This document shows positions 1,160 to 37,750 of a stretch of 52,478 nucleotides of DNA, piece after piece (within the stretch, counting starts at the first letter, position 1; each line of letters opens with the position of its first letter). The notes beneath the pieces are model-generated. The model saw only the letters and a program-made list of their open reading frames with translations. It was not told the DNA's origin and made no database searches. The stretch comes from a virus (Duplodnaviria > Caudoviricetes): IMG/VR virus record IMGVR_UViG_3300025646_000058, positions 1-52,478 of that record. One strand, 5' to 3'. Made by a program: the position numbers and the translations under genes.

Positions 1160-4100
1160 TATCTTAAATTTCTTTCAGATGGTGCGTAGTTTAACCCTAC
1201 TTGATATACCACTTCTTTTAGTTTTGAGTTAGTAATTAACTTAACTAAGAAACTTCTATCCCTCATTGCATCACCATTGATTTTAGGAAACTCCTCATTT
1301 ACAGTATTTACATCCCTCCAAACTTGCGAATAGTAAATATGCTCCTTACCATCAAACACTAAGTTATCTATATCTTCCTCTAAGAAGTCGTAAACATCAT
1401 TAGTAGTTTCCTGCCCATTTCTAGTTTCTATAATTACATCAAATGGAGTAGTAGTATGTAATGCTATTGACTTAGCAATTTTATTTTTATCCCTTTCCGC
1501 ATTAAAAGGTATCCATAATTCTGATTGATTATTTATACCATAGAATGTTGAATGATTTTCGTTTTGGTCATGTAAAAATAAAGCACCCCTATTAAATGAA
1601 GCTAAAGTTAAACCTATTGAACATAAGTATTCAGGCGTATATGAATAATAAGTTGTCCAATGCTTTGTTGTTTCACTAAACGCTAAAGTAATTGGTTTAA
1701 TATTTATCTCTTGCTTTCTTTCGTATTTAGGTAGGATAGGACTTGTACTAATTGTGTAGACTCCTGTTTCAACATTTCGTTCAATAGTAGTTTCTGTTTC
1801 AAATCCAGAAACATTATTCAACGTTTCAGTTGTAAATAAAATATCCGTACTTTCAGGAACTAACATTGTTTCAACTGATACAGTACCGAAACTTATATTA
1901 CCCACTACTGGAGGTATAAATAATTCCCTAGTTAATTCACCAAAAGCAACTACTAATTCCTCATAAGCTGTATCAAATGAAGTAAAGATTGTAGGCACTA
2001 TTTCACTTGCTAAGTATTGCCCAAACTTATCCTCAAAAAACTCTTTCATTTTTATATCGGATAGTAAAGTAATACCATCATTACTTAACCTACATACCGC
2101 CCCACGTTTATAATCTACAAAGTATCTTTGATTACCATTGTAACAGAAACTTTCAGGGTTTAACGCTATTCCATATTCTCCTGTATAATACACAATTTTA
2201 GATAGTACCTTCTCACTAGCAGCAACAGTACCCTGTCCAAATTGGTCAAATATAACATTCTCCTCCACTAAGATACTTCCTACTTTTAATTCCTGGTAAC
2301 AATCTAATCTTTTATTAAATGAATGTAATCTTTGAATACTACCATAAACTCTATCGTATTGCTCAAAGTTAACATCAAAGAAACTATTTAAGCCATTGAT
2401 TGAAGTTTCAGGTATAAATCTATCACTATAATAAATCGTTGTAGGTCGTCTTAATTGTTTAATATCCATATTAACAATATTAGGTCGCCCTGCATCAGTT
2501 GTTATAAAACTTCTATCAACAAAATCATTAACATAATTAGACTCTACAAATTCACTTGAATAAGTAGTTTCTGTAATAGGCATATTCCTTTGGAATAAAT
2601 AAGTATCTCCCGAAGTGAATTTAACTATTGCAGGTTCAGTGTCTGTTTGGTCTTGTACGTTACCTTTGTGTAATCCATTTTCAATTAGATAAAACTCGCC
2701 TATCTCAAAAAACAAGTTATTCTCTACATCTTTTAATGGAGTATATATCTCAAATAAATCACCACCATTTGTACTCAATGAAGGTAAGTTAAATTCATTA
2801 CGTAAAGTTAAAACTCCTGTACCAATATCATAAGATAAAATCTCTAAATCAAAGCGTGTAGAAAATGGGAAACCTTCCGCACTCTTTATAAATCTTATTC
2901 TATCTCCCTTTGTAAATGTATATACTAATTCACTTCCTTTGTTTACTTCGTTATAAATGTTTACTATATTGTCTATGCTTATATTAATTGTGTAACCATC
3001 ATTACTTGATGTTACATCACCCGATAACGTTTTGTATTCAGTTGTTTTAGAAATGAATTGTATGTAGTTTGTAAAGTTTAATTTCTTAGTTCTTACCCAA
3101 GCATAATGTGTCGCCCATTCAGGTGCTTTATTATACAAGTATCCGCTTACTATTGGTACTGATGAAAATGCGTATTGTGTAGGGTCACCCAAAACACTTT
3201 GTAAACCTATCTTAACCTTATCAGTAAAGAATGGTAAATCTAAGCGTAAATCCTCAATAGTGTTTACTGCTCCACTTCTATTCGCTCTATCATAATAAAC
3301 TATACCAAACTCATAAGATGCACCACGTTTTAAAAAACTAGTACCTAAACCAAATGTAGTTACAGCTTCTATATTACCTAAATCTAATCCAATTTCTGAA
3401 TTATATATTTGTATAGCAGGATCATTGTTAATATCCAAATACATATCAACATTACCCACAATATTATCAGTAACGTTATATCGTATTTGACTATTATTTG
3501 TAAATCCATAAATTGTGCCTGTATATCTTGATTGATTTAAACTTTGTGCAAAGTTATTAAATGAATCAGCGTAAACTATAATATCAAAGTAACCGTTTGA
3601 ATCTGTAAATTGATTATCACCTCTTTCAGCTAAAACAATTAATCCTGGTACAGAACTACCATTATTATCTACTATCCTACCACTTACGTTTGATTTAACA
3701 CTATCTAAAGCAAATCTATTTTTAACTTGCGCTAATAATAATAAACCATCATTATCAGTTGAAGGTATGTTAGTAATAACAGATAAACTTTCTAAAGCTC
3801 CTTTATACATTATTAAAGGAGTTTGTAGTGAGCCTTGTTGTATCGTTAAGAATTGTGTAACATCCGTTTTAATAAAGAAAAATCCGTTATGATCCGTAAA
3901 AGTAAATTTGTTAGCGAAATATCTACTTTGCCCTGCTACATAATTTCTGTTAGCTGTATAAAAACCTTCTGGTATATCATTAGAACCTTTATAATTTATC
4001 CTACTGTAAGTAACCCTTTGTTGCCCCCTTACATCATTTGTAGTGTTATAAGTTTCAGCTTCGTTATCATGTAAATATCCAAATGAAATAGTGTTATCTA

Positions 4101-21972: not shown

Positions 21973-22954
21973 TGTTAGCAGTAATACTACATTTCATCTC
22001 CGATTGAAGTTACTACTGTAAATTCTTTTTCTTTTCTTTTTTCTTCCACCCTCTTTAAAGAAATATTAAAATAATCCATATTATTCTCAATTCCTATAAA
22101 GTTTCTATTGGTATTTATACAAGCAATTCCTGTTGTGCAACTTCCAAATGTATTATCCAAAACAATATCGTTTTCATTACTAAAAGTTTCAATAATATAT
22201 TCTAAAACTCTTAATGGTTTTTGTGTTGGATGAAATCTTAAATCAATATCACTTGAATATTCTTTTGATTTTTGCGGTGTAAATGGTACTCTCCCACTTA
22301 TTATTGATAGTGGGTTTCGCTCTCCTGTATCAACTTTCCTTGTTCTTGTTGTAGGAGAATAAATGGTATTACCAACATATTCATTTTCTTTAAATGTTTT
22401 TCTTTGTGTAATAAACTCTTTTTCCTCAATCAACCATTTTTGTGGATTGTACATGTATTTATTATCAAATGAAAAAACAATTATATTTTCGTGAATTTTT
22501 TGATGTTTTTGGTTTGTTTGCATACCACTACCCGCTTTGTTTTTTAACCAAACAACTTCCTCTTTAAAGCAAGTTATATTAGAATTAATCATTACAGTTG
22601 TAAATGGTTGTGAGCCAAACAATACAATTGGTTTATTTGGCTTTATAATTCGTTTGTATTGTTCCCATAATTTATCAAATGGTATAATTGTATCCCAAGA
22701 ACAACTTGTCGTTCCATAAGGTAAATCACAGCAAATAAAGTCAATACTTTTGTCAGGTATCAATTTCATTTGTTCTATTGTATCTCCGTATCTTAAATCT
22801 ATTGTCATAATTTTATTTTAATATTTTTACCACCACTCAAAAAAAAAAAAAAGAAAAAGGTTCAGTTCTATGAATGAGCATTTGTGGTTAATTACCGTAC
22901 TACTGCTAACAGCGTATAAAAAACATTAAAACGATTTTTTATACGCAAAACGTT
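21973..22954. mobile_element. Integron-cassette-like module carrying a DNA methyltransferase
   Basis: 15-bp inverted ends with 1 mismatch (21973-21987, 22897-22911) and an adjoining AAC..GTT hairpin. Confidence 0.55.
21987..22808 (-). CDS. DNA methyltransferase, N4/N6 beta class
   Basis: Catalytic DLPY, HPTQKP, SAM-binding VLDNTFGSCTT. Confidence 0.9.
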   Translation of the reverse strand: MTIDLRYGDTIEQMKLIPDKSIDFICCDLPYGTTSCSWDTIIPFDKLWEQYKRIIKPNKPIVLFGSQPFTTVMINSNITCFKEEVVWLKNKAGSGMQTNQKHQKIHENIIVFSFDNKYMYNPQKWLIEEKEFITQRKTFKENEYVGNTIYSPTTRTRKVDTGERNPLSIISGRVPFTPQKSKEYSSDIDLRFHPTQKPLRVLEYIIETFSNENDIVLDNTFGSCTTGIACINTNRNFIGIENNMDYFNISLKRVEEKRKEKEFTVVTSIGDEM

Positions 22955-24389: not shown

Positions 24390-24992
24390 TTAATTTATCC
24401 ATTTAATTACTGTTTCTCCTTTATAACCCTTTTCCCATACATACCAAGCATAAGCTACTGCACTACCCTCCTTTTTCTTACTCTCAAAATCACCATTCTT
24501 TGCACACATTATCCTACTGCTTGATACATACACAATTCGTGGCGGAAACTCCATAAACAACCTCTTCCTCCCCTTACCCTCCATAAACTGTAACTTCAAA
24601 AACATAGCAACCTTCCTACCCTCTGGTATTATACTTAACGCCTTATAGATAAACTCACTCGAATACTTATATGGCGGATTAGTTATTATGTCGCCTTCCC
24701 ATTCCAAATTGTGTAAGCCTAAGAAATCAACTCCACCCTCTCCATATCCCCTATCCACCAAATCCGTACTCCTCACTTCATACCCATTACGCTCAAATAC
24801 CTTACTCAAATGACCCTGACCACAACTACACTCCCATATACGCTCACTAAACGTTTCCTCCCTCAACAACAACTCTGCTGCTATTGGGTCTGTTGCGTAG
24901 AAGTCTAACTCCTCCCTATCCTTGTCTGTGTGATTACTTGCGCCTAATGTCTTATAAACGCTATTACTGTTTCCTGTCCAATCTTTACTCAT
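24390..24992 (-). CDS. DNA N6-adenine methyltransferase (phage type)
   Basis: DFYATDP, IWECSCGQG, IITNPPY, YAWYVW; likely start MSKDW at 24992 because a -7 element at 25021-25028 lies inside the longer ORF. Confidence 0.85.
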   Translation of the reverse strand: MSKDWTGNSNSVYKTLGASNHTDKDREELDFYATDPIAAELLLREETFSERIWECSCGQGHLSKVFERNGYEVRSTDLVDRGYGEGGVDFLGLHNLEWEGDIITNPPYKYSSEFIYKALSIIPEGRKVAMFLKLQFMEGKGRKRLFMEFPPRIVYVSSSRIMCAKNGDFESKKKEGSAVAYAWYVWEKGYKGETVIKWIN

Positions 24993-25316
24993 TTTATTTA
25001 CCTTTAAATTAAACCTGCAACAAAGATAATTACTATTCACCATTAAAAAAATTTTTGCAAAAACGTTTCCTGTATCCATACGGTGGAGAAAGTAGACTTT
25101 ACCCTTGATAATCAGTACTTTACAAAAATCACTTTTTTGCGAAAATTACCCCGAAAATTACAAAACGTTTCCTCTTTTTTACCCTTTATTTGCAAATTCA
25201 AGTATTTTATAATAATTTTACCCCCGACAATTACGCTAATTGACTTGTCGCAGTTCTTTATCTTTATCTAATTTCGGTGATTACTCGGATAATTCAAACA
25301 ATACTGTGGATGTGTT

Positions 25317-26158: not shown

Positions 26159-26191
26159 TTTGGAATTTAAAAACATTTATTTGTATCTTTG
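26159..26191 (+). promoter_or_regulatory. Early promoter TTTG-N21-TATCTTTG
   Basis: Full Bacteroidota consensus at the head of the small-gene array. Confidence 0.75.
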
Positions 26192-26225: not shown

Positions 26226-26324
26226 ATGAAACAATTAAAAAAACAAAATTCAAGTAAAATTTTTTACGATATATTATTAATGTTAACCGTTTTTGTGATG
26301 GTTATGTTTTTAGCCTACTATTAA
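26226..26324 (+). CDS. 32-aa membrane peptide (MKQLKKQNSSKIFYDILLMLTVFVMVMFLAYY)
   Basis: First ATG after the promoter, A-rich leader, one hydrophobic helix; below the ORF-track cutoff. Confidence 0.55.
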   Translation: MKQLKKQNSSKIFYDILLMLTVFVMVMFLAYY

Positions 26325-26360
26325 CAACAAATAAATTATTAACAATTAAAATTTAAAACT

Positions 26361-26579
26361 ATGGAAAAGGAATTTAAAACACATGGCGCTTATATTTTAA
26401 GCAACACAAACAGTTTATTAATTGAATTATCAAATTGTGGTGACGGTGCGAGGCTTAAATTAAGCGACAAAAACAACGTTGGTAAATGGCAGCAAATTAA
26501 ATATAATAATTTTGGTGATCCGTTTGTTACTTACTATGGAACAAAGTATTATTTAAACGAATTTATAAGAGTTAAATAA
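26361..26579 (+). CDS. Early hypothetical protein
   Basis: ORF preceded by the repeated leader. Confidence 0.75.
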   Translation: MEKEFKTHGAYILSNTNSLLIELSNCGDGARLKLSDKNNVGKWQQIKYNNFGDPFVTYYGTKYYLNEFIRVK

Positions 26580-26589
26580 TTGTGTACCC

Positions 26590-26649
26590 ATGAAAATTAT
26601 TACAATCATTTTATTAACTGTATTAGCAGTATTACAACAAATAAATTAA
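26590..26649 (+). CDS. 19-aa hydrophobic peptide (MKIITIILLTVLAVLQQIN)
   Basis: Fills the gap exactly; signal-peptide-like; may be a remnant. Confidence 0.35.
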   Translation: MKIITIILLTVLAVLQQIN

Positions 26650-26670
26650 TAACAATTAAAATTTAAAAAT

Positions 26671-26856
26671 ATGAAAAGGTATCTTAATTTAAAAACAAAC
26701 TACGGCGTTGAAACAGTTGATCAGATCAACTCAAATGATTTTGAAACTTTAAAAGCTTTTAGGCTTGAATTAAAAAGGCTAGTTAGTGAAAATCATTCGG
26801 CAGGTTTATTGGTTTACACCTCACAAAAGGCAGATAAAAGTTGGAAAAAAAAATAA
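26671..26856 (+). CDS. Early hypothetical protein
   Basis: ORF preceded by the repeated leader. Confidence 0.75.
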   Translation: MKRYLNLKTNYGVETVDQINSNDFETLKAFRLELKRLVSENHSAGLLVYTSQKADKSWKKK

Positions 26857-26883
26857 ATTAATAACACTTTAAAATTTAAAACT

Positions 26884-27126
26884 ATGAAAAAAATAAATGA
26901 TACGTCTAAACTTTATAAAATATACGGTTTAGAATTTCCATTGACTTGCGATTTAGTAGCTAAATTTATTTTTGGCGTAAAAGATAGCGACAACGAAATA
27001 ATAAAAGCAATTAAAAACAATAAAATTTGCGAATATGATTTAAGTAGTTTTTTTATTAACTATGAATACAATTGGCAAAGTGATATTTATTTTATAGAGG
27101 ATTATTTAAGTAAATTAATAAATTAA
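26884..27126 (+). CDS. Early hypothetical protein
   Basis: ORF preceded by the repeated leader. Confidence 0.7.
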   Translation: MKKINDTSKLYKIYGLEFPLTCDLVAKFIFGVKDSDNEIIKAIKNNKICEYDLSSFFINYEYNWQSDIYFIEDYLSKLIN

Positions 27127-27147
27127 TAACAATTAAAATTTAAAACT

Positions 27148-27591
27148 ATGAAAAAGGAAGAAAAAATTAAAAAGGCAATTTTAAGCAACAAAAATTTATT
27201 AAAAAATATAGTTGCAAGCGTTTACGCTGATACTCAAGAAGAAGCTATAAATTATTTTATTGACAATGCACAAAGGTACATTAAAGCAATAAAAGAGGAA
27301 CGTGTAATTTGTAATATTATAAGCGTATCCAAAAGTGGTATGAGTCGTAGGCTTGAATTTAAAGAATTTAGTTATGATACTAAACAAAAAAGGGGCTTTT
27401 TATACCAATTCCATGTATTTTTTAAGTGTTTAGGCTATAAAAATAATGGCAATGGCTTTTTAATTAATGGTTGTGGTATGGATATGGTATTCCACACTAA
27501 TTACACTATCATAAATCAATTGTATCATTTAGGTTTTATTGATAAAGATACTTGTAATATTTTGGCACAAAAAAAGCCTAAATCGGTTTAA
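27148..27591 (+). CDS. Conserved phage hypothetical protein
   Basis: VSKSGMSR and GCGMDM motifs that recur in phage early proteins; repeated leader. Confidence 0.75.
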   Translation: MKKEEKIKKAILSNKNLLKNIVASVYADTQEEAINYFIDNAQRYIKAIKEERVICNIISVSKSGMSRRLEFKEFSYDTKQKRGFLYQFHVFFKCLGYKNNGNGFLINGCGMDMVFHTNYTIINQLYHLGFIDKDTCNILAQKKPKSV

Positions 27592-27606
27592 TAAAATTGT
27601 GTAAAC

Positions 27607-27680
27607 AGTCGAATAAGCGACTATAAAAAGACTTTAGGCTTATTGCGTTTAATGGGGTACTTTGCCCCATTAAGGTAGTT
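27607..27680 (+). ncRNA. Pistol self-cleaving ribozyme
   Basis: P1 AGUCG/CGACU, loop AAUAAG pairing with CUUAUU, AUAAAAAG linker, P2 ACU/AGU, GCGU, P3 hairpin, GGU cleavage site. Confidence 0.9.
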
Positions 27681-27715
27681 AACAAATTGTGTATTAATCT
27701 TAAAAATTAAAAGTT

Positions 27716-27916
27716 ATGGATATTTATTTAATTAAAGACAGTGAAAATTTATATTTTTCACGTAGTTTCAACAAAGAAAAATGGATCAATAATAGAGAAT
27801 TAGCTTATACTTATACGCTTGAGGAAGCAAAACAAATATTTGAATTTTTAAGTAGAATTAAGCAAGATTTAAGCATTGAAAATTATAAAACAAGTGAAGT
27901 AATAATTAAAAATTAA
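27716..27916 (+). CDS. Early hypothetical protein
   Basis: ORF with A-rich leader just downstream of the ribozyme. Confidence 0.7.
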   Translation: MDIYLIKDSENLYFSRSFNKEKWINNRELAYTYTLEEAKQIFEFLSRIKQDLSIENYKTSEVIIKN

Positions 27917-27920
27917 AGTT

Positions 27921-28199
27921 ATGGAATTAATTAATGTAAAAATCGGTACTGCAGAACACAAACTTATTAAAGGTTATAACTATCAAGTAACTTCAAGGTT
28001 TATTGATGATAATATAAGTGGTGAGGTATTTAATTTTGATACTCTAGAAGAGGCTAAAAAGCATTTAGATAATGAAATAAATACGCATATTAATTTGTTA
28101 AGTGAGCTTGAAAATACTTTGTTAAAAGCATTGGAATTAAGTGAACAACTAAATTTAGATATTAGTGAAAATTTACACGAAATTATTGATAATTTATAA
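27921..28199 (+). CDS. Early hypothetical protein
   Basis: Tightly packed ORF; FDTLEEAK motif. Confidence 0.7.
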   Translation: MELINVKIGTAEHKLIKGYNYQVTSRFIDDNISGEVFNFDTLEEAKKHLDNEINTHINLLSELENTLLKALELSEQLNLDISENLHEIIDNL

Positions 28200-28210
28200 A
28201 AATTAAATTT

Positions 28211-28471
28211 ATGGATACTTACATTAAATACAAAAAAATAAAAGATTATCAAAATAAAATAGTAGATAGTTTATCCTATAAATTAAACTTATACCCAAAA
28301 GATAACAACGGTTTAATACATGATAGTATAACAAAAACAATTGAATTTAAAGAGTTAAAAAATAAATTCAATATTGAATTTAAAAAACTGCAAAACATTA
28401 ATAAAATTGGAGTTAAAATGTATAAAAAAGATATTTTAAAAGATATAGAGGAAAAAAGAAAAAAAAAGTAA
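28211..28471 (+). CDS. Early hypothetical basic protein
   Basis: Tightly packed Lys-rich ORF. Confidence 0.65.
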   Translation: MDTYIKYKKIKDYQNKIVDSLSYKLNLYPKDNNGLIHDSITKTIEFKELKNKFNIEFKKLQNINKIGVKMYKKDILKDIEEKRKKK

Positions 28472-28493: not shown

Positions 28494-29081
28494 ATGAAAA
28501 CAATTGCAATCTATCAATTTTCGGAATTAAGCGAAAATGTAAAACAAAAAGTAGTAGAAAATTTTGATACTGAATTAATACATACAGATCATATTTATTA
28601 CGATGCTCAAGAAACGTTTAAACAGTTTAACGAAAATATAGCCTACAAGCTTAAATACATGGAAAATGAGGATATAACAGGTTTAAGGCTACATAAATGG
28701 ATATTAAACAATTTATATGATGATTTGTTTAAACCTAAATTTATTAATAGTATTAAAAAAATAATAAAACATAAAAGGTTAAAAAATAATTATTACAAAA
28801 ATGGCAATGTTTCAAGTTTTTACTATTCTGCTATAAATGTAAATAATTGTTGTGTGTTAACTGGCGTTTGTTATGATGAAGATATATTAAAACCTATGTA
28901 TCAATTTTTGAATAAACCGTACGATATAACATTTAGACAATTAATAAATGACTGCAAAGAAAATTTAGAGAAAAGCTTGCAAAGTGAATTAGATTATTTA
29001 ACAAGTGAGGAAGGTATTATAGATCATATATCTTGTAATGATTATATATTTACTGAAAATGGTAATATTGTCAATATTTAA
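28494..29081 (+). CDS. Conserved phage early protein
   Basis: YQFSELSE..K start, CVLTGVCYD, NDYIFTENG end; widespread family of unknown function. Confidence 0.75.
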   Translation: MKTIAIYQFSELSENVKQKVVENFDTELIHTDHIYYDAQETFKQFNENIAYKLKYMENEDITGLRLHKWILNNLYDDLFKPKFINSIKKIIKHKRLKNNYYKNGNVSSFYYSAINVNNCCVLTGVCYDEDILKPMYQFLNKPYDITFRQLINDCKENLEKSLQSELDYLTSEEGIIDHISCNDYIFTENGNIVNI

Positions 29082-36980: not shown

Positions 36981-37737
36981 AATAAAGTAAAATGAACAAA
37001 ATATTTAATGACAACGCAATAGCAATAATGGACAGGATGATTGCTAAAAACTATAAAGTTGATTTAATTGTAACAGACCCTCCATATAAAATTACGGCAA
37101 GGGGTAATGGTGGAAATAGTGGGGGTATGTTTCAAAAGAAAGAAGTTAATAACGGTAAAATATTTAAAACTAATGATTTAGAAATTGAAGATTGGTTGCC
37201 GAGATTTTACAATATACTTAAAGATAATTCACATTGTTATATTATGACAAACAATAAGAATATAACAAATTACTTAAAAGTTATTGATACCATGTATTTT
37301 AATGGAGATAAAAAACAAAAATTTCATTTCATTAAAAATCTTATATGGGTAAAGGATAATAAAATAATGGGGCAAACCTATATGTCACAATTTGAATATG
37401 TAATTATGCTAAGAAAAGGAGAGCATAAAAAGATAAATGATTGCGGTACTTCTGATGTTTTGCAATTCCCTAATAAAAAGATGAAAGGAGAAGACGGAAA
37501 AACAATTCACGATACCGAAAAACCTATCGACTTAATGAAAGTTTTAATTCAAAATTCATCAAACGAAAATGATATTATTTTTGAGCCTTTTATGGGTATT
37601 GGAGCAACTTGTATTGCTAGTTTATTATCAAACAGACAATATATTGGCGTTGAACTTGATGAACACTATTTCAAAATTTCAGAAGAACGATTAAAAAAAG
37701 CACTTGATAAAGTTGAATTAGATAAATATTTGAAAAA
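36938..37737 (+). repeat. 39-bp direct repeat pair bracketing the MTase gene
   Basis: 36938-36976 and 37699-37737, 35/39 identical, both encode ALDKVELDKYLK. Confidence 0.9.
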
Positions 37738-37750
37738 AGAAAAGTTATGA
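36992..37750 (+). CDS. DNA methyltransferase, N4/N6 beta class
   Basis: VTDPPY, HDTEKP, FEPFMGIGAT. Confidence 0.9.
   Translation: MNKIFNDNAIAIMDRMIAKNYKVDLIVTDPPYKITARGNGGNSGGMFQKKEVNNGKIFKTNDLEIEDWLPRFYNILKDNSHCYIMTNNKNITNYLKVIDTMYFNGDKKQKFHFIKNLIWVKDNKIMGQTYMSQFEYVIMLRKGEHKKINDCGTSDVLQFPNKKMKGEDGKTIHDTEKPIDLMKVLIQNSSNENDIIFEPFMGIGATCIASLLSNRQYIGVELDEHYFKISEERLKKALDKVELDKYLKKEKL

Follow-up and report, generated by a model that had tools for sequence, protein, structure and literature searches.

Introduction

The pistol class of self-cleaving ribozymes was reportedly described by Weinberg and colleagues in 2015. According to Harris et al. (2015, PMC4604425), pistols cleave with Mg2+ at a GU junction, where the scissile bond was placed, and the reaction leaves 2',3'-cyclic phosphate and 5'-hydroxyl ends; a two-nucleotide junction, usually GU, on the 3' side between P2 and P3 is given there as a rule of the class. 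The same source describes pistols as frequently lying near phage genes and a representative from Alistipes putredinis as active in vitro (PMC4604425). A role has been proposed for ribozymes of another class, the hammerheads in polycistronic transcripts of prophages and phages, which would convert long transcripts into gene-length mRNAs; one of them lies upstream of an early helicase gene in the haloviruses HF1 and HF2, and for HF2 the 5' end of a transcript has been mapped close to the hammerhead cleavage site (Perreault et al. 2011, PMC3088659). Processing of polycistronic transcripts by phage ribozymes is an existing hypothesis. As given in a 2019 review (PMC6765202), which repeats the idea, it is stressed to be unproven, and the purpose of bacterial and phage self-cleaving ribozymes is said to need additional work.

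The locus described here lies in a linear contig from IMG/VR, of an uncultured freshwater tailed phage, that was analysed whole (52,478 nt, estimated 83% complete) and is referred to below as the window. It resembles the pistol class (RF02679) in its three stems, P1-loop pseudoknot, linker, core nucleotides, GU junction and position near phage genes, and differs from it in a pseudoknot with one G-C pair and in a lower G+C content. With the hammerheads of phages and prophages it shares the placement of a self-cleaving RNA between co-directional genes, shortly before a start codon and in the early region; the class and fold are different, and the window has a single ribozyme rather than several grouped around a gene. 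Synthetic insulators of the RiboJ type are engineered and hammerhead-based, and their cleavage strips upstream RNA and leaves a defined leader with a 5'-hydroxyl. To these the window pistol, which is natural and belongs to another ribozyme class, bears a functional analogy only.

Results

A complete pistol ribozyme between two small ORFs

A search of the window against Rfam with cmscan matched the Pistol family (RF02679) on the + strand at 60.7 bits (gathering score 34.5, E = 1.1e-8), and the hit was recovered again in a second run (Table 1). The alignment covers model positions 1-68 of 68 without truncation, every upper-case unpaired consensus position is matched, and insertions and deletions are confined to the P3 loop. 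A preliminary description of this DNA had proposed a complete pistol here, and the full-length match to the covariance model bears that proposal out. RF02679 was the sole Rfam family above threshold in the 52,478 nt, and no second ribozyme was observed in the window; at E ≤ 5 the extra rows were RybB (22.6 bits) and aCoV-5UTR (18.2 bits), both below threshold and taken to be chance.

The sequence at 27607-27680 reads as the preliminary description gave it, and its division into elements was correct for P1, the 6-bp pseudoknot, the linker, GCGU, P3 and the GU junction. P2 had to be amended, as it has four pairs (G-U, A-U, C-G and U-A) and not three. All six pairs of the pseudoknot (27612-27617 with 27639-27644) are Watson-Crick, a single G-C among them. 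U27648 follows the conserved GCG and opens P3, and exactly two nucleotides, G27675 and U27676, separate the end of P3 at 27674 from the start of P2 at 27677. The proposed cleavage at G27675|U27676 agrees with both the model alignment and the pair table, and the 40 nt claimed between U27676 and the ATG at 27716 were likewise correct. Cleavage site and chemistry would in this case be those published for the class. When the isolated element was folded, P1 and P3 were present in the minimum free energy (MFE) structure, with z = -3.56 and none of 200 shuffles equally stable. On the strength of the covariance model, the element at 27607-27680 is confirmed as a real, complete pistol ribozyme, and it is probably active.

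Table 1 Features of the pistol locus in the window, and pistols in deposited genomes
Feature	Position	Strand	Basis or remark
Upstream ORF, 147 aa, phrog_12365	27148..27591	+	homologue precedes the L002 pistol
AATTGTGTA copy, 4 nt past the upstream ORF's double stop	27595..27603	+	outside the ribozyme
Pistol self-cleaving ribozyme, complete, 74 nt	27607..27680	+	RF02679
P1 hairpin, 5 Watson-Crick pairs (27607-27611/27618-27622)	27607..27622	+	pair table, MFE fold
P1 loop AAUAAG, 6 nt	27612..27617	+	pair table
A-rich linker AUAAAAA	27623..27629	+	gapless against model positions 17-23
P2 5' strand GACU, pairs with AGUU at 27677-27680	27630..27633	+	pair table
Conserved core: UUAGG (27634-27638), pseudoknot strand, GCG (27645-27647)	27634..27647	+	model upper-case consensus
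Pseudoknot 3' strand CUUAUU, pairs with 27612-27617	27639..27644	+	pair table
P3 hairpin, 10 pairs (27648-27657/27665-27674), 7-nt loop	27648..27674	+	pair table, fold
Predicted cleavage junction G/U	27675..27676	+	unpaired junction nucleotides in model alignment
Predicted 5'-hydroxyl leader, 40 nt, A/U-rich	27676..27715	+	holds the word copy at 27685-27693
AATTGTGTA copy, 5 nt after the ribozyme	27685..27693	+	
Downstream ORF, 66 aa, no family	27716..27916	+	differs from the gene after the L002 pistol
Pistol in MH616963 (L127)	1506-1575		RF02679
Pistol in NC_018863 (L128)	1507-1575		RF02679
Pistol in NC_022763 (L129)	1494-1561		RF02679

Genomic setting and plausible host

The phage genome is organised in two arms. 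Genes for the large terminase, the portal, virion proteins and two DNA methyltransferases lie on the leftward arm, which runs from 25 kb to position 1. The rightward, regulatory and replication arm extends from 25.6 to 48.2 kb; it opens with a weak match to a helix-turn-helix (HTH) protein and a run of small ORFs, and further on carries a third methyltransferase, a serine recombinase, a primase/helicase and a RecE-like exonuclease. About 2 kb into this arm, the pistol occupies a 124-nt spacer between two co-directional small ORFs, and the called ORFs in 25.5-48.2 kb are all on the strand of the ribozyme. For the protein encoded upstream, the only Pfam match lay below threshold; PHROGs placed it in a family of unknown function, and the ESM Atlas returned no usable match. 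For a 195-aa protein encoded at 28494-29081, the search found no viral relatives.

The sole nucleotide match to a deposited phage was 0.9 kb at 86.6% identity to Flavobacterium phage mymlan6, in the region of the methyltransferase gene at 21987-22808. The terminase relatives from cultured phages, at about 33% identity, all belong to phages of Flavobacterium, Cellulophaga, Tenacibaculum or Maribacter, and DNA of the phage was found mainly in sequencing runs labelled freshwater metagenome, none of the runs listed being recorded as RNA. A host among the Bacteroidota (Flavobacteriia) is plausible from these relationships. The three methyltransferase genes in this 52-kb phage lie at 21987-22808 (-), 24390-25079 (-) and 36992-37750 (+). 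As a separate observation, hexamers containing GATC (TGATCC/GGATCA and TGGATC/GATCCA) are over-represented across the whole window, with 18-19 copies against about 5 expected.

A covarying partner at a syntenic locus

Six related viral loci were retrieved with the 147-aa upstream protein. A pistol was present in one of the six, the closest (L002, 54% protein identity), where it scored 65.2 bits and begins at the last base of the stop codon of the homologous upstream gene. L002 sits on G005, a contig of 63,321 nt that is rated complete and has one pistol. Between the two pistols, seven of the 25 helix pairs show compensatory double changes, and all four helices are touched (two changes in P1, one in the pseudoknot, one in P2 and three in P3). 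The L002 pseudoknot lacks one terminal pair that is present in the window, and the unpaired core is the same in both save for one variable linker base. The fold of the window pistol appears to be under selection, because compensatory changes are combined with an identical catalytic core at a syntenic locus.

These comparisons also bear on the reading of the element as a chance resemblance or as a decayed, inactive relic. The very A-U-rich pseudoknot would fit a relic; against it stand an E value of 1e-8 over the full model, the retention of all conserved core positions and the seven compensatory changes relative to L002, which argue for continuing selection. We regard a chance match or relic as extremely unlikely.

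The other five loci are without a pistol. In four of them (L003, L004, L005 and L007) the homologue of the upstream gene runs up to or into the next gene, no spacer exceeding 14 nt, and in L006 a terminator-like hairpin follows the homologue. The ribozyme-bearing spacer is thus a block that is either present or absent, measuring 124 nt in the window, 106 nt in L002 and ≤14 nt in the four pistol-less relatives. Since five more distant homologues do without a pistol, the ribozyme is dispensable for the upstream gene family. A pattern specific for the pseudoknot matched no other viral contig; its single match in metagenomes, contig L251, agrees with the window at 100% identity over 1,447 nt.

Pistols in other phages and in bacteria

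A conserved-core pattern matched at least 119 stretches in IMG/VR contigs, and a structural filter with dereplication by context left 77 canonical phage pistols among the matches listed. Most of these 77 lie between co-directional ORFs, as the window pistol does. Measured from the stop of the upstream same-strand ORF, the median distance is 19 nt (15 nt in the window, -1 in L002), and measured to the start of the next ORF it is 42 nt (35 nt in the window, 31 nt in L002); the random-position control for these distances is crude, so that they are descriptive. The setting of the window pistol is typical for phage pistols.

Full-length pistols that are unannotated in the records were also observed in the Bacillus phages B4 (NC_018863, 71.4 bits) and Spock (NC_022763, 74.0 bits) and in the Crassvirales metagenome-assembled genome (MAG) MH616963 (68.0 bits). 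The start of each coincides with, or shortly precedes, the 3' end of a small hypothetical gene, and the next gene in the same direction follows at about 90 nt; in MH616963 the ribozyme shares 20 nt with the end of a hypothetical CDS as annotated. They differ from the window pistol in a shorter P3 and in more G-C-rich pseudoknots, and no protein homology was detectable between the window phage and the Crassvirales locus. Crassvirales are described as infecting Bacteroidetes (PMC10136315), and a pistol in this order therefore suggests that the class is present in phages of Bacteroidota.

Among bacterial assemblies, 15 of 120 pattern-matched loci were canonical pistols; the structural filter removed the other 105, as is to be expected when a pattern of 15 bases is searched for in 596 Gb. 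Carriers include Bacteroidales, Bacteroidaceae, Sphingobacteriaceae (two copies) and Alistipes, as well as one Flavobacterium MAG whose genome is flagged as unpublished. Among the literature matches listed, no paper had pistols in Bacteroidota phages in its title. The class, its link to phages and its presence in Bacteroidota are all already known and are not new here, and the window pistol or a close relative may already be among the published pistol representatives.

A weak pseudoknot and a possible anti-core pairing

Among 87 distinct canonical pistols sampled, the window pseudoknot is the only one with a single G-C pair, the others having two to five, and the G+C content of the ribozyme is 38% against a sample median of 56%. 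With one G-C pair in the pseudoknot and a four-pair P2 that includes a G-U, activity of the window pistol could therefore be low or condition-dependent.

One form of such dependence would be gating by translation. The stretch AAGCCUAAA (27574-27582), which falls in the final codons of the upstream gene, could pair with the core stretch UUUAGGCUU (27633-27641) and so prevent both P2 and the pseudoknot from forming; the core would then be released by a ribosome that terminates at 27589-27591, and cleavage would follow translation of the upstream gene. The complement is perfect over 9 nt and appears in both the MFE and the centroid folds of the 201-nt context, where it replaces the pseudoknot. 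It is also the longest upstream complement among 92 pistols; only one of 200 shuffles of the window's upstream 80 nt reaches 9 nt, and in L002 five nucleotides of it remain at the corresponding offset. Nevertheless, the mean over the 92 pistols is 4.57 nt, compared with 4.80 for reversed and 4.71 for shuffled sequences, which is no excess over the controls, and anti-ribozyme pairing was rejected as a general feature of pistols. A best of 92 at p of about 0.005 is expected by chance, the observation was made post hoc, and the pairing is not kept in L002, where it measures 5 nt (shuffle p 0.62). The 9-nt complement between AAGCCUAAA and UUUAGGCUU is probably chance, and we consider translational gating very unlikely.

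Flanking repeats and a genome-wide polar word

Copies of AATTGTGTA on either side of the ribozyme had been read in the preliminary description as a hint that it moves or is regulated as a unit. Both copies, at 27595 and 27685, are present and in direct orientation. The word is, however, dispersed through the genome: the window holds 53 exact copies where 1.36 are expected (2.0 under an order-3 Markov model), and 45 of the 53 lie inside genes (32 antisense, 13 sense). The related G005 has 51 copies and none of the reversed word. Neighbouring copies are at most 100 nt apart in 8 of 52 gaps, counted by hand, with about 5 expected for random placement. In L002 the downstream copy is kept at the same 5-nt spacing after the pistol, while no exact copy occurs upstream of it, where a one-mismatch version lies inside the upstream gene. 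Variant contigs of two runs, X10 and X11, carry G>C at 27691 within the downstream copy. Three gene ends in the rightward arm (26578, 32149 and 32390) have a copy of the word at most 5 nt from the stop and no ribozyme, and the junction of ribozyme and word was in no other viral contig searched.

A mobile or jointly regulated unit bounded by AATTGTGTA, with the repeats as a target-site duplication or as recombination sites, would account for a direct 10-nt repeat, AAATTGTGTA, on both sides and 90 nt apart, for the presence or absence of the ribozyme spacer among relatives, and for one variant contig whose match to the window restarts 4 nt after the upstream copy. The 53 window and 51 G005 copies, mostly in genes, and the frequency of close gaps speak against such a unit, as do the missing exact upstream copy in L002, the mutated downstream copy in X10 and X11, and the gene ends that carry the word without a ribozyme. 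The bracket proposed earlier is not upheld, only the downstream copy being common to L002, and we hold the chance of a mobile unit to be negligible. The flanking pair is instead a by-product of a dense genome-wide word, because 53 copies are present, L002 has no upstream copy, the variants are altered and close pairs are common.

In its full form the word is AATTGTGYA, which occurs 83 times in the window, where about 3 copies are expected, and 101 times in G005. The most over-represented 7-mer of the window is AATTGTG (107 copies against 17.5 expected under the order-3 Markov model). AATTGTGCA occurs in 30 copies against 1.1 expected under the same model and has little polarity. Up to 34.5 kb most copies of AATTGTGTA are on the + strand, whereas between 34.8 and 47 kb the - strand has the majority, so that polarity switches at about 34.6 kb, inside the rightward arm and away from the switch in gene strand. 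In both phages, copies of the word in the promoter-proximal early arm are in sense orientation and frequently sit at gene ends; elsewhere they are antisense.

A repeat coding for a peptide was rejected, as the copies fall in three antisense and two sense frames and give different peptides; selection on AATTGTGTA therefore acts on the DNA. An origin in the host genome was rejected for four Flavobacteriia genomes, in which the word is not enriched, with 35, 48, 50 and 16 copies against 27, 25, 56 and 18 of the reversed word. Among the matches listed in a string search of the literature for AATTGTGTA, all were unrelated by title. Candidate functions for the word are a replication- or recombination-polar signal (Chi- or KOPS-like) or a primase start site.

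Ribozyme and word might also act together. Since copies of AATTGTGYA in the promoter-proximal early arm are sense-oriented and gather at gene boundaries, the word might act there on RNA. In both pistol-bearing phages the predicted cut would leave a 5'-hydroxyl mRNA beginning UAG(U/C)UAACAAAUUGUGUA, with the same spacing, and this start is shared despite flanking proteins that are 54% identical and downstream genes that differ. In a composite signal acting on RNA, the ribozyme would present the word at a fixed distance from the new 5' end, where it might be, for example, a binding site for a phage factor controlling early mRNAs, and cleavage might in addition depend on whether the upstream ORF is translated, by way of the 9-nt anti-core. 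Taken separately from the ribozyme, AATTGTGYA could be a new lineage-specific polar DNA signal for replication or recombination. We think it quite improbable that this whole set of proposals, the composite signal on RNA together with the polar word on DNA, applies.

Junction cassettes and a mosaic boundary

Small genes around the pistol are joined by recurring junction cassettes, which extend from the stop across the spacer into the first codons, while the joined genes themselves are unrelated. A first series of about 54 nt (67-87% identity) occurs at 26324-26377, 26634-26687, 26847-26900 and 27111-27164, and a second type (78% identity) occurs after the ribozyme at 27689-27720, 27894-27925 and 28190-28221. 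The two series meet at the pistol. The predicted leader includes the junction sequence that is common to the next two gene starts. In G005, the gene that follows the pistol is a homologue of window ORF 26884-27126, which is upstream of the window pistol.

Population variants were taken from contigs of four DNA runs, and among the differences listed none falls in 27607-27680. In a contig of run X11 the match to the window ends at 26891 and is taken up again precisely at 27607, where the ribozyme begins, to run on across the downstream gene; the intervening stretch of about 650 nt is without alignment at ≥80% and may be a diverged allele rather than different genes. Clean differences at the level of whole cassettes also occur: a contig of run X11 skips 27919-28208 (290 nt), where a 92-aa ORF lies at 27921-28199. 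L251 is identical to the window from 26497 onward, and its first 632 nt are without alignment to the window. Judged from these alignments, the ribozyme sits at a mosaic boundary.

Transcription signals around the ribozyme

TAnnTTTG is the consensus of the Bacteroidota -7 promoter box. No such box was observed between the upstream stop and the ATG, the nearest being at 26184 and at 26967 (inside ORF 26884-27126), and no terminator-like hairpin was found in 24.8-30 kb. Both promoter scans are crude, and the one for sigma-70-like promoters returned 32 sites compared with 34.6 in shuffles. Because the ORFs are on one strand and neither a terminator-like hairpin in 24.8-30 kb nor a TAnnTTTG box between stop and ATG was found, it is reasonable to infer that the ribozyme is internal to a longer, early-type transcript. 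The preliminary description had placed it in the early polycistron of a Bacteroidota phage; it does lie on the coding strand inside the rightward arm and the host is plausible, while "early" and "polycistron" are suggested by gene order. An unrecognised promoter may lie in the conserved junction sequence after the ribozyme, and if so the role of the ribozyme would be to trim transcripts that read through, and not to split one polycistron.

The missing terminator invites another account, in which the pistol is a 3'-end module of the 147-aa gene: a structured, exonuclease-resistant mRNA end would replace a terminator, and expression of the downstream genes would rely chiefly on start signals within the conserved junction sequence. 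The L002 pistol stays with the homologous upstream gene while the gene that follows differs, and pistol-less L006 has a terminator-like hairpin after the homologue where none is found in 24.8-30 kb of the window. The sequence at 27689-27720 moreover recurs before the next two genes (27894 and 28190) and could hold a start signal. In X11, however, the ribozyme goes with the downstream side, the match restarting at 27607, and no promoter element is recognisable between the ribozyme and the ATG. We judge the 3'-end module to be unlikely; it and the splitting of a transcript are not mutually exclusive.

Discussion

We consider it probable that a functional pistol in this spacer self-cleaves at G27675|U27676 and parts the upstream from the downstream message, and splitting of a polycistronic transcript is the likely role of the window pistol. 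As RNA polymerase reads through the spacer, the 74-nt element would fold into P1, the 6-bp loop pseudoknot, P2 and P3, and the backbone would be cut co-transcriptionally by internal transesterification. The upstream message would then end in a compact ribozyme fold with a 2',3'-cyclic phosphate at G27675. The downstream message would begin at U27676 with a 5'-hydroxyl and an unstructured A/U-rich leader of 40 nt before the ATG; by the pair table, the 3' product would be tethered to the ribozyme after the cut by the four base pairs of P2 only. The likely effect is that the stability and translation of genes would be uncoupled across the cassette boundary. That the site is transcribed, that the RNA is cut in vivo and that expression is altered as a result are what we infer from this arrangement, and either of the two messages might be the one to gain from the cut.

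Knowledge of the pistol class itself is unchanged by this locus, as pistols near phage genes and in Bacteroidota are already in print. The window pistol would rather be of value as a clean natural test case for what phage ribozymes do: it is a single copy, its syntenic partner in a complete related genome covaries with it, and its place is where two arrays of small-gene cassettes meet. Pistols of phages B4 and Spock and of the Crassvirales MAG could serve as cultivable models.

Flavobacteriia make little use of Shine-Dalgarno pairing. With a host from this group probable, the 5' end of the mRNA and its leader could therefore matter for expression. The flanking repeat, for its part, points beyond the ribozyme to a larger unexplained feature of this phage lineage, the polar word AATTGTGYA, which is stranger than the ribozyme itself.
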